Assembly: GCA_023898585.1 (NCBI GenBank)
Contig: CP060229.1
Location: 462,763-526,762 of the forward strand
Direction: 5' to 3'
Source: Candidatus Nomurabacteria bacterium
Lineage (GTDB): Bacteria > Patescibacteriota > Minisyncoccia > Phycocordibacterales > UBA918
Length of the DNA stretch: 64,000 nucleotides
Every line of letters starts with the position of its first letter. The stretch's first letter is position 1. Positions 27,724 through 63,074 of the stretch are shown piece by piece. The notes beneath the pieces were generated by a model, which saw only the letters and a list, made by a program, of their open reading frames with translations, searched no databases and was not told where the DNA came from. The translations under genes and the position numbers were made by a program.

Positions 27724-29138
27724 ATTACCATCTTTACCCGAGGTAATAGTGATAATTTAATCTAAATCTGTTAGTCTCCAATGACCAACTTACTTATCCG
27801 GAACTGGTGCTTGACTTTAATTTCTTTTTCTATAGAATAGCCATCACGTATTTATGAGTTTTGAGAAAAGAACACTTTCGTAGCAAGAAATTTCGCAGAT
27901 TGCGATTTAACTTGCCGCGAGATTGCGGTTTTTTCTTTCAAAATTCAAAGGGATGCGGGTTGTTTGACAATTCCCATGACCGAGCGTCACGCGACCAAAT
28001 GTGCGAACACTTTGTGTTCATTATTTGGTTGCATGACCGAGCGAATGGGGATTGTATGGCTTGACCATACAATCGCATATTCATTAAGGACAGGTTGATA
28101 AGACCTGTCCCAAAAAGTCCTACGGCGACATTGTTTTCTTGTGAGCGAATGCGAACTAGAAAACGAGAAGTGCCTTGTGGTAAATCGACGTCGTCGTAGG
28201 CAACCCCCGCATAAAGCTAGAATCGACGCTAGCGCGGGGGAGTAGGTAAAAAAGTGTGTCGGGTTAAGAGTTTGTCCAATCGGACAGGTCTTTTCGTCCT
28301 CGACACGCTAAACACAAAGATCGTAGATTTTCCTAAGGAAAAATCTACGATCAGTCCGGAGTATGTATCTCCGGACAACACTCAAAAAATTGTGCAGCGG
28401 TGCACAGCGTTTTTGTGAGGAGCATGTCATCAGCGAAATCTGGCGACGGACCTTACTTTCGAGCGAGCGAGTGAAATGGAAGTAGCCATCAGGCCATTTA
28501 CATTTCCGAGCGAGCGAAGAAAGCAAGGAACGTTATACAGAAACGCAGTTGATGTATAACGTTCCTTACAGGAACAAAGGGTGTATGGTGGATGCCTTGG
28601 CTTCAAGAAGCGATGAAGGACGTGATATGGCTGCGATAAGTTTCGGGGAGGTGCCAAATAACCTTTGATCCGGAAATGTCCCAATGGGGAAACCCTACTA
28701 CTTTCAGTAGTAACCCTTGTATGAGGGGGCGTACCTAGGGAAGTGAAACATCTCAGTACCTAGAGGAATAGAAAGCAATAGACGGAAATTTCTTTTTGAG
28801 CGGATGCTTTGCATCAGCTCATTGAGCATGGTGCTTTGCGCCATTACGCTCAAGAAGAAGGTTCTTGCGATTCCCGGAGTAGCGGCGAGCGAAAGGGGAA
28901 TAGCCCAAATCCTGCACCTTTTAAGGTGCAGGAGGTTGTAGGGCGGAATCTGCATTTAGTTGCAGAGAGTTACAAAACAGATATATAGGAAAACACGTTG
29001 GGAAGCGTGACCCCAGTAGGTAATAGTCCTGTATTCGAAATGTATCTGACTCTCTTGGTTCCGTTCCTGAGTAGCGCGGGACATGAATAGCCCGTGTGAA
29101 TCCACCAGTACTAACTGGTAAGGCTAAATATTCTTGAA

Positions 29139-29184
<46 letters not shown>

Positions 29185-29949
29185 GGAGAGGGGAGTGAAA
29201 TAGATCTGAAACCATACATCTACAAGGAGTCGGACCCAGCTCCAGATTCGTAATCTGAATCAACGGGCTTTATAAGATCAACCGCAGTTGTTTTATAGAG
29301 CAAAGTTGTGAAAATCGTGAATCTGGAGCTGGGGACGGCGTGCCTATTGAAGAATGAGCCGGCGAGTGTATATCTATGCTTTGTCTAAGTGGCAATCCCA
29401 CGGAGGCACAGTGAAAGCGAGCGTGAATAGCGCGAATATAGCGTAGGTATACGACCCGAAGCGGGAAGAGCTTGCCATGAGCAGGGTGAAGCGACTGTAA
29501 TAGGTCGTGGAGGCCCGAACCGGTTGGCCGTACAAAACCATCGGATGACTTGTGGTAAGGAGTGAAAAGCTAATCGATTTCCGTAATAGCTGGTTCTCTC
29601 CGAAACAGCTTTAGGGTTGGCGTCGTGTGTTTCCTACGGGGGTAGAGCACTGGAAGGTCAAAATAGGGGGAAACTTCGTTTGACCTATCAAACTCCGAAT
29701 ACCGTTAGGCCACAGCACGGCAGTTAGACTACGGGGGAGAAGCTCCGTTGGTCAAAAGGGAAACAGCCCAGATCGCCAGTTAAGGTCCCAAAATATATGC
29801 TCAGTGCAAAATGAGGAGGTGAGGATTCACAAACAGTGAGGAGGTTGGCTTAGAAGCAGCCATCCTTTAAAGATAGCGTAATAGCTCACTCATCGAGAGT
29901 CCTTGCGCCGAAAATGATCGGGGCTCAAGCATATTACCGAAACTGCGGA

Positions 29950-30332
29950 TTCGTAGGCTTCATTTAGGAAAAGTTTATGTCCAAGGGGACAGTTTGATGG
30001 TCGTCAGAGTCCGCTCGCGCAGCGGAACAGCGTACGACCACAGCTGCCCACCAAGCATGCAAAAACAGTAAAGATGTCTCCTGAGGCGAGCGCCACCTGG
30101 CGCGTTAGTGACGGGCACTGCGCAGACTGTTAACATTGCATACTTTTCGTCGGGAGTGTTCGAAAGAACCCCCTTGGACTCCCGTTCTTTTACGTCGAGA
30201 CAATTTTGGTCCCCGGTAGCTTAGTTGGCAGAGTAGCTGAATGCAAATCAGTGAACACTGGTTCGACTACAGTCCGGGGAACCAAAATTGTCTCACGTAC
30301 CATTTCAAACAAGCGTTTGAATCCTAAATGAA
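29950..30332 (+). other. intervening sequence (about 345 nt) inserted in the apical loop of 23S helix 45, closed by a 20-bp stem (UUCGUAGGCUUCAUUUAGGA / UCCUAAAUGAAGCCUACGAG)
   Basis: Flanks align to E. coli H45 (GCGGCAGCGACGC..GCGUUGUUGGGUAGGGGAGCGU); the interior has no 23S homology. Confidence 0.7.
30210..30284 (+). ncRNA. tRNA-like cloverleaf (anticodon-loop GCA, encoded ACCA 3' end) embedded inside the helix-45 insertion, carried on a 21-bp extended stem
   Basis: UCCCCGG acceptor/CCGGGGA, D-arm GCUU..AGUUGGCAGAGU, anticodon stem GCUGA/UCAGU with loop AUGCAAA, T-loop UUCGACU but G53-A61 mismatch; flanked by GAGACAAUUUUGG / CCAAAAUUGUCUC. Confidence 0.45.
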
Positions 30333-30865
30333 GCCTACGAGTGGTAGGAGAGCGTCCATCTCTGCGATGAATCCAAGGCGGGAGCCGCGGTGGAGCGAGG
30401 TGGAGTGAGAATGCCGGCACAAGTAACCGCAAGGCAGGTGAGAACCCTGCCCGCCGAAATACCAAGGTTTCCTTTGCGATGGTGATCATCGAAGGGTTAG
30501 TCGGTCCTAAGGGAATCCCGAATGGGGGACCCGATGGAGAGCAGGTTAATATTCCTGCACACTGTTATGTTCCTATGGAGGGACGGAGCGTTGTACCCAA
30601 AGCTTCTTATTGGATTGGAGCTGGAGCTATGAGCGTGTTACTTAGGTAAATCCGGGTAGCAATAGCGCGAGTAGGGTCTGAATGTGAGCCTTCGGGTGAG
30701 CAAATAAGGGGAGCACGCTTCCGAGAAAAACTTCGTTTGGGTTAAGCATAATGGTTCCGTACCGCAAACCGACACAGGTGGTAGAGTCGAGAAGACTAAG
30801 GCGAACGAGTGAGAGGTCCTCAAGGAACTCGGCAAAATAGCGGCCGTAACTTCGGGATAAGGCCC

Positions 30866-31174
30866 GCCAGCCCTAGATTTGGGGTATGATAGTTGAATGC
30901 ACGCTGTGTACGTGATTCAAAACAATGAGACTAAAGAAGTCTATATTGGTCGTACTGCCAATCTCAAAACAAGACTGGTTGAACACAATTCGCGCGGTAA
31001 GAAAAGCACCACGCGCAATAGTGGCAGCTGGAAGTATATTTATGTTGAACTTTTTCGAAGTACTGATGATGCTATTGAGCGCGAAAAGAAGCTCAAAGCG
31101 CACGGTAGTGGTAAACAAAAGTTGATGTCACGACTTCGAAAAAGCTTGTTTTGAGCCCCAAATCTAGGGCTGGC
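30866..31174 (+). other. 23S helix (E. coli about 1710-1750 region) expanded by a 271-nt loop that consists almost exactly of a GIY-YIG ORF
   Basis: Stem GCCAGCCCUAGAUUUGGGG / CCCCAAAUCUAGGGCUGGC; the ORF starts 12 nt after the stem and stops 1 nt before it. Confidence 0.65.
30897..31154 (+). CDS. small GIY-YIG nuclease-domain protein encoded inside 23S rRNA
   Basis: VYVIQNNETKEVYIGRTANLKTRLVEHN (GIY..YIG, Arg, Glu); 85 aa; paralogue at 54231-54500. Confidence 0.6.
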   Translation: MHAVYVIQNNETKEVYIGRTANLKTRLVEHNSRGKKSTTRNSGSWKYIYVELFRSTDDAIEREKKLKAHGSGKQKLMSRLRKSLF

Positions 31175-31366
31175 CGCAGCGAAAGATTTCCTGCCGACTG
31201 TTTAACAAAAACACAGCTCTCTGCTAACACGAAAGTGGATGTATAGAGGGTGACGCCTGACCTATGCCGGAAGGTTAAGTACGGATGGTGATATGAGATT
31301 CGTCTTGTATTGCTGGGCTGTATAAGCCCCGGTAAATGTCAGCGATAACTATAATCGTTCTAAGGT

Positions 31367-31599
31367 CGAGTGCGTGATTTATTCGTGCATTCGACGGATT
31401 GGGACGATTGTAGAGTTAAATAGCCTAGCCATAGTTACCTTGCGACACAGAAATGTGGCGCATAATCCAAACCAAGCCGTCAAGAGACCAGATGCTTGGC
31501 ACCGCAGCACACGGATCATTGATCTGGGGTGGTGGTGAAGATAGAGTCCAATTGTGAAATGTCCCCGCTACGTTTGTGGTGGAGGAGAAGGAAAAATTG
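31367..31599 (+). other. 233-nt ORF-less intervening sequence at the conserved CUAAGGU|AGCGAAAUUCC site (E. coli about 1917); probable minimal group I intron
   Basis: Exons rejoin to CUAAGGU+AGCGUAUUUCCUUGUCGGGUAAGUUCCGAC; the insert follows a U and ends in G. Confidence 0.55.
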
Positions 31600-32202
31600 A
31601 GCGTATTTCCTTGTCGGGTAAGTTCCGACGTGCACGAATGGCGTAACGAGTGGGAAACTGTCTCGAGGACCTGCTCGGTGAAAATACAATCCCGGTAAAG
31701 ATGCCGGGTACCTGCAGTTAGACGAAAAGACCCCAGGAGCTTTACTGTAATTTCGTATTGGGGCTGTTGAGTTAATGCGTAGCATAGGAAGGAGACTTTG
31801 AAGCGAGCTTTCGGGTATCGTGGAGTCACCAGTGAAATACTTCCCTTTATTTTGGCAGTCTCTAACCGGTGTGGCAAAACCACATCGAGACAGTGCGTGA
31901 TAGGCAGTTTTAGTGGGGCGCTACCCTCCCAAATCGTAACGGAGGGGTCTCAAGGTTGGTTAGGCGCGAATGGAAACCGTGCCGATAGTGTAATGGCATA
32001 AACCAGCTTGACTGTGAGGAGTAGATTCCGAACAGATACGAAAGTAGAGCATAGTGAACCGATGGTTGGCTTTAGACGCCGCCGGAGATTACCCGATAAA
32101 AGTTACCCTGGGGATAACAGGCTAGTTGTGCCCAAGCGTCCATAGCGACGGCACAGTTCGGCACCTCGATGTCGGCTCATCTTATCCTGGGGCTGGAGCA
32201 AA

Positions 32203-33024
32203 CCATATCTGCTCTCCTTGCTGGAAACAGCAAGGTAATCGGTTGGTGGATTTTGTCTTTGGCATAATCCACCAACCGGACTGTAACAATGCGGTACCCT
32301 CCGCGGTACAGGAAACAAGCTCAAAACGGAGAAGGCTGACTCATGCGGTCTAGGGAAGACAAATGACCTGCAGTTTCGCAGGTCCCAGGTGTGCTACACT
32401 TGGAGTATGAGAGCTAATTCCGTAGGAAAGATGTGTTCTGAAGTCGATCTGGCATATGTTGCTGGTTTGGTTGATGGAGATGGCGCTATCATGGCGTGTA
32501 TCGAACCACACCAAGAAAAGAAGTTTCGGTTCAGAGTAAGGGTTGTTTTCAAAGTCACTCAAAAACACAAGGAAGACTTAATATTTCTTGAAAAATTGTT
32601 TGAGTGTGGCTTAATAAGACAAAACGGATCAACATACGATTGGATAGTGCGCGATCAACAATCGCTCGCTACCATACTTGGTATGTTACTCCCTTACTCC
32701 CGCTCGAAACAGCAGCAAATTAAGCTTGCGTTAGATATTCTTCATACTGAAATAGTAACCAAAGAAGACCTACTGCGAGTTGCCACATTGGCGGATGCAT
32801 TGTCACGGTTTAACGTTCGGTCCAACAACCGACGAAAAAACCATGTGACAATGATCCAAGAACACATTTCCTCTAACGACTGATCGCTACTGGTTGGCAG
32901 TAGCGTGAGATATACCCGCTTTGTGGGGTATCACACGGCTTGCACCTACGGTGCGTGTGGTGACACGCGTACTACGGTGATGGAATAGTCTGATCTATGC
33001 GGGAACGCATAGTTAACAGCAAAA
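32203..33024 (+). other. about 820-nt group I-type intron in the peptidyl-transferase region (GGGGCUG.AG | .AGGUCCCAAGGG), carrying a LAGLIDADG ORF
   Basis: Exons align to E. coli GGGGCUGAAGUAGGUCCCAAGGGUAUGGCUGUUCGCC; exact boundaries are ambiguous by ±3 nt (AGCAAA repeated at both junctions). Confidence 0.65.
32389..32883 (+). CDS. LAGLIDADG homing endonuclease (single-motif), intron-encoded
   Basis: DLAYVAGLVDGDGAIMA motif; 164 aa. Confidence 0.75.
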   Translation: MCYTWSMRANSVGKMCSEVDLAYVAGLVDGDGAIMACIEPHQEKKFRFRVRVVFKVTQKHKEDLIFLEKLFECGLIRQNGSTYDWIVRDQQSLATILGMLLPYSRSKQQQIKLALDILHTEIVTKEDLLRVATLADALSRFNVRSNNRRKNHVTMIQEHISSND

Positions 33025-33068
33025 TGAGGTCCCAAGGGTTTGGCTGTTCGCCAATTAAAAAGATACGC

Positions 33069-33102
<34 letters not shown>

Positions 33103-33150
33103 CTCCTATCTACTGCAGGCGTCGATTCTTGAGGAGAGTTGTCCGTAGTA

Positions 33151-33938
33151 AGTAATTGCTACTTCAAGGAGAGATCCTTGATGACAATACGGCTTATAAC
33201 GGTGAAGTCTAAGTCAAATCTGGTTTTAGAGAATGATTGACCAAGGTCCAGTGTCAATCAAACTCGCTTGAGGACCGGAATCTTGATATGATAATACCGT
33301 GGGAAGTCGATCCGACACAGATTTAGCATACATTGCGGGTTTCCTTGATGGAGACGGAAGCATTATGTTGCAGGTAAAGTCGCGTAGCGATACAAATCGC
33401 GGAGTGCGCTTTATGGCAACTATCTGCCTCTATCAAGATACTCGTCACGAGAGTCCACTGTTGTGGATGCGTGAAATCTTTGGTATCGGGTACATATCAC
33501 ACCGTAAGGATAGTATTACCGAACTGAGAGTTAATGGTTTTGCTTCGGTAAGAAGAATACTCATTTTGCTCCAGCCTTACATTAGGTTCAAACAAGTACA
33601 AGTAACAGCATTGTTGAATGCTTGCGAAATACTTGGTGGCCGCAGGGTTGGTGATCTGAATGAAGTCCAGCTGAAAGAGTTGGTTGATCTGGTTTTTTTG
33701 ATCAGGGAAAACAACTATAAAAGCAGGCAGACGCTTACCAAAGAAACATTGCTACTGCGTTTGGGTTTGACCCCGTAACGACTTGCACTGAAATATGTGC
33801 AGACCGCATGTTGATGAATCATTTCTTTGAAAATGACTGACCATGCAGGTAACATGCCGTCGCCCTCGCCCTTTGCCTTTCAAGGTGCAGGGACGGGTGA
33901 AGATATAGTCTGTGCTCCTAGAAATAGGGGAATCCACG
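33151..33938 (+). other. about 788-nt group I-type intron inserted within the sarcin-ricin loop (…UCCGUAGUA | CGAGAGGACC…), carrying a LAGLIDADG ORF
   Basis: Joined exons give UUGAGGAGAGUUGUCCGUAGUACGAGAGGACCCGG, which aligns to E. coli CUGAGGGGGGCUGCUCCUAGUACGAGAGGACCGG; the intron ends in G. Confidence 0.6.
33299..33778 (+). CDS. LAGLIDADG homing endonuclease (single-motif), intron-encoded
   Basis: DLAYIAGFLDGDGSIML motif; 159 aa. Confidence 0.75.
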   Translation: MGSRSDTDLAYIAGFLDGDGSIMLQVKSRSDTNRGVRFMATICLYQDTRHESPLLWMREIFGIGYISHRKDSITELRVNGFASVRRILILLQPYIRFKQVQVTALLNACEILGGRRVGDLNEVQLKELVDLVFLIRENNYKSRQTLTKETLLLRLGLTP

Positions 33939-34017
33939 ACGAGAGGACCCGGATGAACGAACCTCTGGTCTATCGGCTGTCACGCCAGTGGCATTGCCGA
34001 GTAGCTATGTTCGGAAC

Positions 34018-34050
<33 letters not shown>

Positions 34051-34430
34051 GCCTCCAAGATAAGGAATCATTAAGTCCCCAGAGAGATGATCTGGTTGAT
34101 AGGCACTAGGTAGAAGTACAGCAATGTATGGAGCCGAGGTGTACTAATAGGACGTAGTTTCCTGTAAGGAACGTTGTACATCAACTGAAACTTACATAAT
34201 TGTCGTACTGCCGCGTTGTGCATCGGTAAAATAATTCTCTCTGGACGTCTAGTCCCGTTCGAATTATTTTCCTCGCACGCCTTGCATTACAAACAATTTT
34301 GAGAATTTTCAGCCGGTTGTATAACTTTTTACAAACGTTGACACCGTTGCACAATTTTTTGAGAAGAGGTGTTTTACCTACAAAAACAAACCAACTTACC
34401 ACTTTGTCTTCAACATAAGGGAGACAAGTA

Positions 34431-35371: not shown

Positions 35372-35484
35372 TGCAAGTTGGTGATTTGGGGAGAGGGGTA
35401 CACCCGTTCTCATTCCGAACACGGAAGTAAAGTCTCTTACCACCGATGGTACTGCGCAAGCGGAAGAGTAGGTAGTCGCCAACT
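35372..35484 (+). rRNA. rrf: 5S rRNA
   Basis: Helix I CAAGUUGGUG / CGCCAACUUG; CCGAACACGGAAGUAAAG; GAGUAGGUAGUCGCC. Confidence 0.85.
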
Positions 35485-54230: not shown

Positions 54231-54500
54231 GTGGTAATTTCAATGTTCTACTTCTATGTAATAGAAAATTATTTAGGTGAGCTGTATTTTGGGAGCACCA
54301 ATGATTTGAAACGTCGTTTTATAGAGCATAAAACTGGCAAATGCTTTTCTACTAAGGGCAGTGATTGGAAATTGATTTATTACGAGGCGTACAGGGACGA
54401 ATCTGATGCAAGTCGGAGGGAACAGAGAATAAAAGATCATGGTCAAGCGGTAAGACACTTAAAGGAGAGATTGAAAAATTGCAGAAGGAGTAAAGATTGA
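54231..54500 (+). CDS. standalone small GIY-YIG nuclease-domain protein (paralogue of the 23S-embedded one)
   Basis: FYVIEN..GELYFGSTNDLKRRFIEHKTG. Confidence 0.6.
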   Translation: MVISMFYFYVIENYLGELYFGSTNDLKRRFIEHKTGKCFSTKGSDWKLIYYEAYRDESDASRREQRIKDHGQAVRHLKERLKNCRRSKD

Positions 54501-54511
54501 ATGGGGGTTTA

Positions 54512-54569
54512 CCCCGCACTCAGTTTTTCCTATGGAGTATCAACTCCATAGGAAAAACTGAGTGCGGGG
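54512..54569. terminator. exceptionally long perfect hairpin (27-bp stem: CCCCGCACUCAGUUUUUCCUAUGGAGU-AUCA-ACUCCAUAGGAAAAACUGAGUGCGGGG)
   Basis: Read directly from the sequence; lies between the GIY-YIG gene and the SD-bearing island. Confidence 0.7.
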
Positions 54570-54752
54570 TTGACAATTCTCCAAAGTATGCTAGCTTATC
54601 AGTGTCTTCACGACGCGCGACAGATGTGGTGTAATCTTTTTTAAAGAAATTGCCACTTCTGCCTCGCGTACGCGAGGCAGAACCTGCTGACACAGCGTCA
54701 GCAGAACCTGTCGGCGTCGCCGACTTACGCTTTATCCTAGGAGGGATAAGTG

Positions 54753-60415: not shown

Positions 60416-62009
<1,594 letters not shown>

Positions 62010-62966: not shown

Positions 62967-63040
62967 TTTGATTTGTCCGTGCTTAGCTCAGTTGGCTAGA
63001 GCATTCGACTGATACTCGAAAGGCCCTAGGTTCGAATCCT
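62967..63040 (+). tRNA. tRNA-Ile (anticodon GAU), flanked by an about 30-bp extended processing stem
   Basis: Acceptor CCGUGCU/AGCACGG, U8, D-arm GCUC-AGUUGGCUA-GAGC, anticodon loop CUGAUAC, T-arm CUAGG-UUCGAAU-CCUAG; flanks GAUAUUUUGUUUGUUUGAUUUGUCCGUGC / GCACGGACAAAUCACGCAAACAGCAAAAUAUC. Confidence 0.85.
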
Positions 63041-63074
63041 AGAGCACGGACAAATCACGCAAACAGCAAAATAT

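Follow-up and report, generated by a model that had tools for sequence, protein, structure and literature searches.

How can a 23S ribosomal RNA (rRNA) gene carry a protein-coding gene inside one of its helices when no intron surrounds it? This question is raised by a 64,000-nucleotide (nt) stretch of a Candidatus Nomurabacteria genome (GenBank assembly GCA_023898585.1, contig CP060229.1, positions 462,763 to 526,762), referred to here as the window, in which an open reading frame (ORF) for a GIY-YIG protein fills the space between the two strands of an rRNA stem at positions 30866 to 31174. We favor the explanation that the tip of helix 63 bears an ORF-carrying intervening sequence (IVS), which is probably removed by RNase III without religation. 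Weighing the evidence on all sides, we put the chance that this explanation is correct at about even.

The outer stem of the element, S1, consists of 19 nt at 30866-30884 (GCCAGCCCTAGATTTGGGG) and 19 nt at 31156-31174 (CCCCAAATCTAGGGCTGGC). The two strands are 100% complementary and are separated by 271 nt. By simple arithmetic, an inverted repeat of 19 bp without mismatches, its arms no more than 300 nt apart, would arise by chance about 1e-4 times in 64 kb. The ORF (30897-31154; 85 amino acids [aa]) begins with an ATG at 30897, 12 nt past the 5′ strand of the stem, and ends with a TGA at 31152-31154, 1 nt short of the 3′ strand. It is the only long sense ORF inside the stem and leaves just 13 nt of the enclosed stretch noncoding. 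These positions, together with the assignment of the product to the GIY-YIG family (Pfam PF01541; E = 5.9e-17), agree with the original prediction for this locus. The 12 nt that separate the stem from the ORF (30885-30896; TATGATAGTTGA) form an A/U-rich leader with no Shine-Dalgarno (SD) motif, like most genes in the window. All parts of the element, including the inner helices described below, were mapped on the + strand.

When the gene was aligned with the Rfam bacterial large-subunit rRNA model, the outer 12 bp of the stem coincided with the model's 12-bp helix at 1751-1776, and 283 nt were found to be inserted at the tip of that helix. In terms of the E. coli structure, we take this helix, which follows the GUAACUUCGGGAGAAGG hairpin, to be helix 63. 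The eukaryotic expansion segment ES27L grows from helix 63. Neither group I nor group II introns were matched at the Rfam gathering score anywhere in the window, and a search of the insert (30860-31180) at E ≤ 10 returned no intron or ribozyme family, only a chance-level match to a small RNA (E = 5.5). With just 13 noncoding nt as well, the insert has no intron core, as had been claimed. An archaeal-type bulge-helix-bulge intron, defined by two 3-nt bulges at its boundaries with a 4-bp helix between them, was also considered and was ruled out because the stem is perfectly complementary over its 19 bp and has no bulges.

Fifteen distinct 23S genes from Paceibacteria/Candidate Phyla Radiation (CPR) lineages, collected by a genome scan plus contig look-ups, had the element at this position in helix 63. 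The carriers include metagenome-assembled genomes titled Candidatus Nomurabacteria, Kaiserbacteria, and Paceibacterota. Contigs with an intact insert came from the Logan assemblies of runs SRR14493005, SRR9330155, SRR29060565, SRR15359044, and SRR12463116. In all 15 inserts, the 5′ strand CCAGCCCTAGATTTGGGG was invariant (30867-30884 in the window), and the stop codon lay 1 nt before the 3′ strand. The outermost base of the stem covaried with its partner at 31174. The leader ranged from 11 to 15 nt, and its first three bases (TAT) were invariant while the remainder varied in sequence and length. The enclosed loop measured 264 to 277 nt.

This enclosed stretch had been described as a loop. The 271 nt are indeed enclosed by the stem, but they are not a free loop, as two more conserved helices lie inside the ORF RNA. 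The last 42 nt of the element (31133-31174) act as one contiguous 3′ strand that pairs with three separate 5′ segments, giving S1 (19 bp), S2 (11 bp), and S3 (12 bp). S1, the helix 63 stem, lies outside the ORF, whereas S2 and S3 lie inside it. In S2, 30963-30973 (CTCAAAACAAG; codons 23 to 26) pairs with 31145-31155 (CTTGTTTTGAG; the last codons and the stop codon), so that the stop codon is paired and the helix abuts S1. In S3, 31050-31061 (CTTTTTCGAAGT; codons 52 to 55) pairs with 31133-31144 (ACTTCGAAAAAG; codons 79 to 83). The composite 42-bp helix was obtained in agreement by a single-sequence fold (minimum free energy of −126 kcal/mol; z = −7.4), a repeat finder, and RNAalifold with the 15 sequences.

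Comparison of the 15 sequences revealed a constraint on this pairing. Of the 630 cells formed by the 42 pairs, 98.4% were standard-paired, versus 24 to 59% when the partners were slid. The pair at the base of S1 was GC in 7 loci, CG in 5, UA in 2, and AU in 1, and a compensatory S2 pair was GC in 11 loci and AU in 4. Every pure one-sided change in a paired position produced a G·U pair, which RNA, unlike DNA, can accommodate. The S2 double change was also visible in the proteins, where Thr25 and Phe85 occurred together in 4 clusters and Ala25 and Leu85 in the other 17, with perfect linkage across all 21; the four Thr25/Phe85 clusters are not mutual closest relatives. Fourteen of the 86 codons of the ORF lie wholly inside an RNA helix, and two more lie partly inside one. 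Normalized codon entropy was 0.076 in helix codons versus 0.635 elsewhere (Mann-Whitney p = 1e-6), and the synonymous sites of the S3 5′ strand were frozen. Covariation is thin, being confined to two pairs, and the case for S2 and S3 consists mainly of frozen synonymous variation and wobble-only changes.

Judged by its substitution pattern, the ORF is a real gene under purifying selection. Pairwise dN/dS values (nonsynonymous over synonymous divergence) ranged from 0.06 to 0.30, with dS at about 1 or saturated. The 21 close protein clusters share 67 to 100% identity and are mostly 85 aa long (82 to 87 aa); two longer clusters proved to be read-through artifacts whose extensions are translated rRNA. 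In the alignment of these clusters, Y5, Y16, R26, H30, and E63 were invariant. We take these to be the putative catalytic residues. Two of the 15 copies are decaying. One of them (L008) has an in-frame TGA, and the other (L009) is frameshifted with several stops and has lost several S3 pairs. Both retain the stem, and L009 also retains the insert length.

The GIY-YIG domain spans the entire protein in family members of 82 to 87 aa, leaving no linker and no C-terminal DNA-binding domain. A profile search of the PDB found only the UPF0213 proteins BH0048 (1zg2; E = 2.8e-7) and EF2693 (1ywl; 6.9e-4). An AlphaFold model (predicted local distance difference test score of 84.7) had the GIY-YIG fold, and Foldseek placed 1zg2 first and then Slx1 nuclease domains (template modeling scores of 0.58 to 0.67; 24 to 28% identity), with I-TevI lower. 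The NCBIfam model of group I intron endonucleases (TIGR01453) gave 24.8 bits against a cutoff of 56. From these sequence comparisons and the predicted structure, the protein is best described as a minimal stand-alone Slx1/UPF0213-type GIY-YIG domain and not as an I-TevI-type homing endonuclease, so the label "homing-endonuclease-type" in the original prediction is unsupported or overstated. The proteins 1zg2 and 1ywl have been assigned to the Slx1 family as minimal stand-alone domains, paralogous to the UvrC/homing-endonuclease lineage (Dunin-Horkawicz 2006, PMC1564403). Like them, the insert-encoded protein is a single GIY-YIG domain (85 to 100 aa in this group) with no auxiliary domain. They differ in being encoded by ordinary free-standing genes, whereas the gene described here is nested in an rRNA helix and has RNA structure imposed on its codons. 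An exhaustive profile search yielded 9,900 representatives at E < 1e-3, mostly 80 to 115 aa long and mostly free-standing. A literature search on UPF0213/YhbQ function found nothing.

The nuclease genes of I-TevI-type and LAGLIDADG intron endonucleases resemble the element in lying inside an rRNA gene, in their patchy occurrence, and in having decaying copies. The insert-encoded protein has the N-terminal GIY-YIG domain of the I-TevI type, but it lacks a DNA-binding domain, and its gene is not in an intron. The insertion site also differs from those of homing endonucleases in being a variable helix and not a conserved core sequence.

The distribution of the element is patchy. When metagenomes were scanned for these flanks around a short helix 63, at least 120 insert-less matches were returned. 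In relatives at about 85 to 90% flank identity to the window, the insert is replaced by short, variable hairpins of 7 to 12 bp with GNRA or UUCG loops, such as GCCCCTA-GCAA-TAGGGGC and GCCCAAACCC-TTCG-GGGTAAGGGC. These short hairpins agree with the reduction of helix 63 reported for CPR 23S rRNAs (PMC9297842). None of the insert-less matches listed (at least 120) had an empty site in which a short loop closes the carriers' 19-bp stem. Helix 63 is free to vary in noncarriers, whereas in carriers an 18-bp stem sequence is invariant despite saturated synonymous sites.

In a neighbor-joining tree of 431 flank columns, carriers were interleaved with noncarriers. For 14 of the 15 carriers, the nearest relative by insert was not the nearest relative by flank. 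Together, the flank tree and these nearest-neighbor mismatches suggest horizontal spread. Distances between inserts and between flanks (310 flank nt) were nevertheless correlated (Mantel r = 0.44; p = 0.02). The original prediction had pictured a parasitic gene of homing-endonuclease type in an rRNA expansion loop. A selfish element does fit the data, since the insertion sits at the end of a surface helix that varies, noncarriers are mixed with carriers in the flank tree, and two copies are decaying; it is the homing-endonuclease part of this picture that is not supported. A search for the stem motif in viral contigs gave one 18-nt match in an unrelated intergenic region, which is at chance level.

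Further GIY-YIG subfamilies occur at the same helix 63 site. In a distant one (locus L148, read-through protein P0043), the outer CCAGCCC/GGGCTGG is common to both elements, while the distal stem is different in sequence and compensated. Alternative inner pairings were seen for L148, which is represented by a single sequence. Stems of distant subfamilies guessed from read-through peptides were partly wrong and were discarded, as the DNA of L148 has another distal stem.

Relatives of the ORF were also found next to tRNA genes. In Peribacteria, Verrucomicrobia, and Terrimicrobiaceae genomes, ORFs with 44 to 52% identity start 13 to 82 nt after a gene for tRNA-Val, -Met, or -Asn (L010, 3905-4300; L011, 3842-4330; L012, 283-460). 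In L010 and L011, that tRNA is repeated 3′ of the ORF in partial or degenerate form, and the L010 ORF reads into the pseudo-tRNA. The sequences suggest that the family tends to lodge beside or within stable-RNA genes.

The IVS mechanism is proposed because the architecture is that of an ORF-carrying IVS, because CPR genomes retain rnc (PMC12641178), and because, according to Brown 2015 (as cited in PMC11270868 and PMC9297842), transcripts of CPR rRNA genes lose their insertions. Extra sequence that is absent from close relatives sits at the tip of a surface helix, and its termini form a long double-stranded stem (19 bp perfect; 42 bp in the composite helix). The 23S IVSs of Leptospira, Salmonella, and Coxiella burnetii (the last in helix 45, with an S23p ORF) are alike in their surface-helix tip, long perfect or near-perfect terminal stem, single small loop-filling ORF, lack of an intron core, and sporadic distribution (PMC4990558). 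The Coxiella IVS is 428 nt long; it has a terminal stem of 28 bp, its loop holds an ORF, and RNase III cuts it out with no subsequent religation (PMC4990558). Its cargo is a four-helix S23p protein, whereas the element described here encodes a GIY-YIG nuclease; its ORF is decaying and apparently unexpressed, whereas the GIY-YIG ORF is under strong purifying selection. The overlap of inner helices with coding sequence also sets the element apart from the Coxiella IVS, and for the element we infer excision by RNase III.

According to this mechanism, the element would be transcribed within the 23S rRNA precursor, and its last 42 nt would zip with S3, S2, and S1 in turn during transcription. Zipping would compact the 271-nt insert into a rod, so that the halves of helix 63 could meet and folding of the 23S rRNA could continue. 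The resulting long double-stranded RNA (dsRNA) would be an RNase III-type substrate. RNase III would then excise the insert without religation, so that, as with classical IVSs, the 23S rRNA would stay cleaved at a surface helix. The ORF would be translated from either the nascent or the excised RNA without an SD motif, which is normal for this organism. The nuclease may help the element to persist in populations, most likely through DNA cleavage and recombination.

Several observations weigh against the IVS explanation. Classical IVSs are found at helix 25 or 45, whereas the site here is helix 63; insertions at helix 45 and at a helix 25-like position do occur in the same gene. Selection acts on the inner helices S2 and S3, although there is no obvious need for it if the insert is merely cut out and degraded. 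In addition, the invariance of the stem despite saturated dS, which neither pairing alone nor recognition by RNase III is sufficient to account for, points to a sequence-specific reader. Site-specific homing is doubtful because the protein has no DNA-binding domain; homing of CPR GIY-YIG ORFs is also doubted, on the grounds of low incidence and poorly conserved sites, in the only published survey (Tsurumaki 2024, PMC11270868). Lastly, given the Mantel correlation, the patchiness may reflect vertical descent with repeated loss.

The insert might instead be a retained expansion segment, with the 42-bp, three-branched arm staying on the mature 50S subunit and extending from helix 63 like ES27L. 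The ORF would then be translated from nascent or free precursor. A compact, conserved arm with so strong a fold would suit a segment of rRNA that is kept, as would the tight loop length, which is maintained even in the pseudogene L009. Helix 63 is also surface exposed, and it is shortened in CPR (PMC9297842). We consider such retention unlikely. The arm is dispensable, since close relatives manage with a 7- to 12-bp hairpin, and the decayed copy L009 has lost several pairs of S3. A perfect dsRNA of at least 19 bp is also unlikely to evade RNase III, which CPR bacteria have kept (PMC12641178), and Brown 2015 (as cited in PMC11270868) reported that the insertions of CPR rRNA genes are missing from the transcripts.

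A different view, which we consider about as unlikely, is that the ORF is a domesticated, immobile passenger: a cellular GIY-YIG gene that lodged ancestrally in helix 63 and whose product is used by the host, for example, in DNA repair or recombination. Its expression would come from the strong rRNA promoter, and its patchiness would reflect repeated loss alone. Long-term purifying selection on the ORF is consistent with this view, as are the moderate agreement between insert and host rRNA distances and the great size of a mostly free-standing family that has a free-standing member in this very genome. It is harder to reconcile with the two pseudogenes among the 15 copies in which the stem was kept, with the mismatched nearest neighbors of insert and flank at 14 loci, and with the scattering of carriers among insert-less relatives. 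The relatives in other phyla that adjoin tRNA genes with a duplicated part of the tRNA, a mark of insertion, and the presence of further subfamilies at the same helix 63 site also argue against an immobile gene.

More speculatively, the clade's minimal GIY-YIG proteins could be selfish nucleases guided by structure and not by sequence, with DNA encoding hairpins of stable RNAs (rRNA helix tips and tRNA genes) as their target. The cassette would consist of the ORF and the invariant stem, and the 42-bp, partly codon-built fold-back would spare the host rRNA. Slx1 is a branched-DNA nuclease, and this reading is prompted by the Slx1-like fold, by the invariant stem that travels with the ORF, by the other subfamilies that share the site with a compensated distal stem, and by the relatives that adjoin tRNA genes with a duplicated tRNA part. 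We offer it as a tentative and rather unlikely proposal. If true, it would describe intron-free life of a nuclease gene in an essential RNA gene, a new class of mobile element.

Self-processing at the RNA level is less credible still and is, in our judgment, improbable. Here, the GIY-YIG protein would recognize the invariant stem in the 23S rRNA precursor and cut it, or help to cut it, in the manner of a maturase. A stem that stays invariant despite saturated synonymous sites needs a sequence-specific reader, for which the protein inherited along with it is an obvious choice. We know, however, of no GIY-YIG enzyme that cleaves dsRNA, and the pseudogene loci L008 and L009 persist, although a paralogue acting in trans could compensate for them. 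Last, splicing and religation of a true intron (group I, group II, or bulge-helix-bulge) at boundaries outside the stem, the finding named in the original prediction as the one that would overturn it, is extremely improbable as far as sequence analysis can tell: group I introns are present as other insertions in related 23S genes (L008 and L009), but this insert has no intron model match at E ≤ 10, only 13 noncoding nt, and no bulges, and the published counts (PMC11270868) place all CPR GIY-YIG ORFs in nonintron insertions.

GIY-YIG ORFs in nonintron insertions of CPR rRNA genes are already published, and the element does not represent a new category. Tsurumaki 2024 counts 15 GIY-YIG ORFs in insertions of CPR 23S genes and 15 in insertions of 16S genes, all lacking intron features (PMC11270868). 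The element is of the same kind as these and the insertions of Brown 2015: it is inserted in a CPR 23S gene, is at least 100 nt long, matches no group I or II intron model, and has a Pfam GIY-YIG ORF. The available text of Tsurumaki 2024 gives counts only, with no helix 63 site, invariant stem, composite helix, selection analysis, or Slx1 assignment (PMC11270868). These five points, among them the embedding of the composite helix in codons and the strength of selection on the ORF, are to our knowledge new, and they give a concrete anatomy to a class of CPR rRNA insertions that had previously only been counted. If excision by RNase III is true, helix 63 would join helices 25 and 45 as sites where 23S rRNA can be broken harmlessly. 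If the nuclease acts on hairpin-forming DNA of rRNA or tRNA genes, this would explain the mobile behavior of a GIY-YIG domain that has no DNA-binding module.

Such inserts also distort the calling of rRNA genes. The whole-window Rfam match closed the host 23S gene at 32289, and model positions 2655-2912 aligned to 33122-34155. The gene therefore extends to about 34155 (28565-34155, + strand, after correction of the 3′ end) and contains two further large insertions; its end had been miscalled by about 1.9 kb. Inserts break up assemblies as well, since most carriers are on contigs of <3 kb. Each of the two downstream insertions has a LAGLIDADG_1 ORF (32389-32883 and 33299-33778), and no group I intron was matched in this part of the gene (32269-34155) at E ≤ 0.01. 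LAGLIDADG ORFs are usual a few hundred nt 3′ of the helix 63 GIY-YIG element in carrier 23S genes, as at L133 (5372-6007), L137 (1858-2367), L138 (1184-1735), L141 (784-1338), and L148 (1406-1858). Since they co-occur with the helix 63 element, a single rRNA gene can host several unrelated nuclease genes.

Shorter insertions in the same 23S gene comprise 88 nt near model position 228 (~28780-28867), 17 nt near position 315 (~29050), and 83 nt at position 583 (~29240-29323). The last of these is probably in helix 25, which is likewise a classical IVS site. These helices and helices 45 and 63 are the ones on which the expansion segments ES7L, ES15L, and ES27L are found in eukaryotes. The helix 45 insertion (~30108-30334) has a tRNA-Cys(GCA) gene nested within it (30210-30284), which was called by both Rfam (50.5 bits) and ARAGORN and is bracketed by a 13-bp inverted repeat (gagacaattttgg / ccaaaattgtctc). 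Different tRNAs were found in helix 45 of other Patescibacteria 23S loci (L009, 818-894; L105; L131; L037; and L025), including Pro(TGG), Lys(CTT), a Leu-like tRNA, an odd call with a 4-base anticodon, and a Trp tRNA on the opposite strand. Processing of the nested tRNA by RNase P and RNase Z would sever the 23S rRNA at the classical IVS site. A literature search on tRNA genes nested in 23S rRNA found no paper.

The rRNA genes of the window are unlinked, with the 16S gene (60416-62009) lying about 25 kb downstream of the pair formed by the 23S and 5S (35377-35484) genes; a tRNA-Ile gene (62977-63051) follows the 16S gene. The unlinked genes, the many rRNA insertions, and relatives titled Nomurabacteria, Kaiserbacteria, and Paceibacterota together point to a CPR affiliation. 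The 3′ end of the 16S rRNA (61990-62009) is GGATTAATTCC and lacks the CCUCC anti-SD motif, and 27 of the 29 long ORFs of the window have no SD-like motif upstream. An analysis of SD motifs was therefore uninformative as a test of translation and was set aside.

The window also contains a free-standing member of the GIY-YIG family (54243-54500, + strand; 85 aa from its ATG). It had been called a near-paralogue of the insert ORF, which overstates a relationship of only 42% identity; it has no enclosing stem and is not part of the element. Beginning 10 nt 3′ of its stop codon is a hairpin whose 28 bp are all paired (54511-54570); its loop is 4 nt long, it lacks a T-run, and a 26-nt palindrome lies beyond the hairpin (54657-54682). 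Elsewhere in the family, many relatives of 220 to 370 aa (P0070, P0082, P0091, P0115, P0120, P0126, P0130, P0134, P0136, P0140, P0164, and P0171) combine, in frame, a GIY-YIG domain with a prepilin-type N-terminal motif (KSGAGFTLIELL...) and a pilin-like body. In these sequences, a nuclease gene seems to occupy the place of the leader peptide in type IV pilin genes, and the proteins may be either real fusions or gene-calling artifacts.

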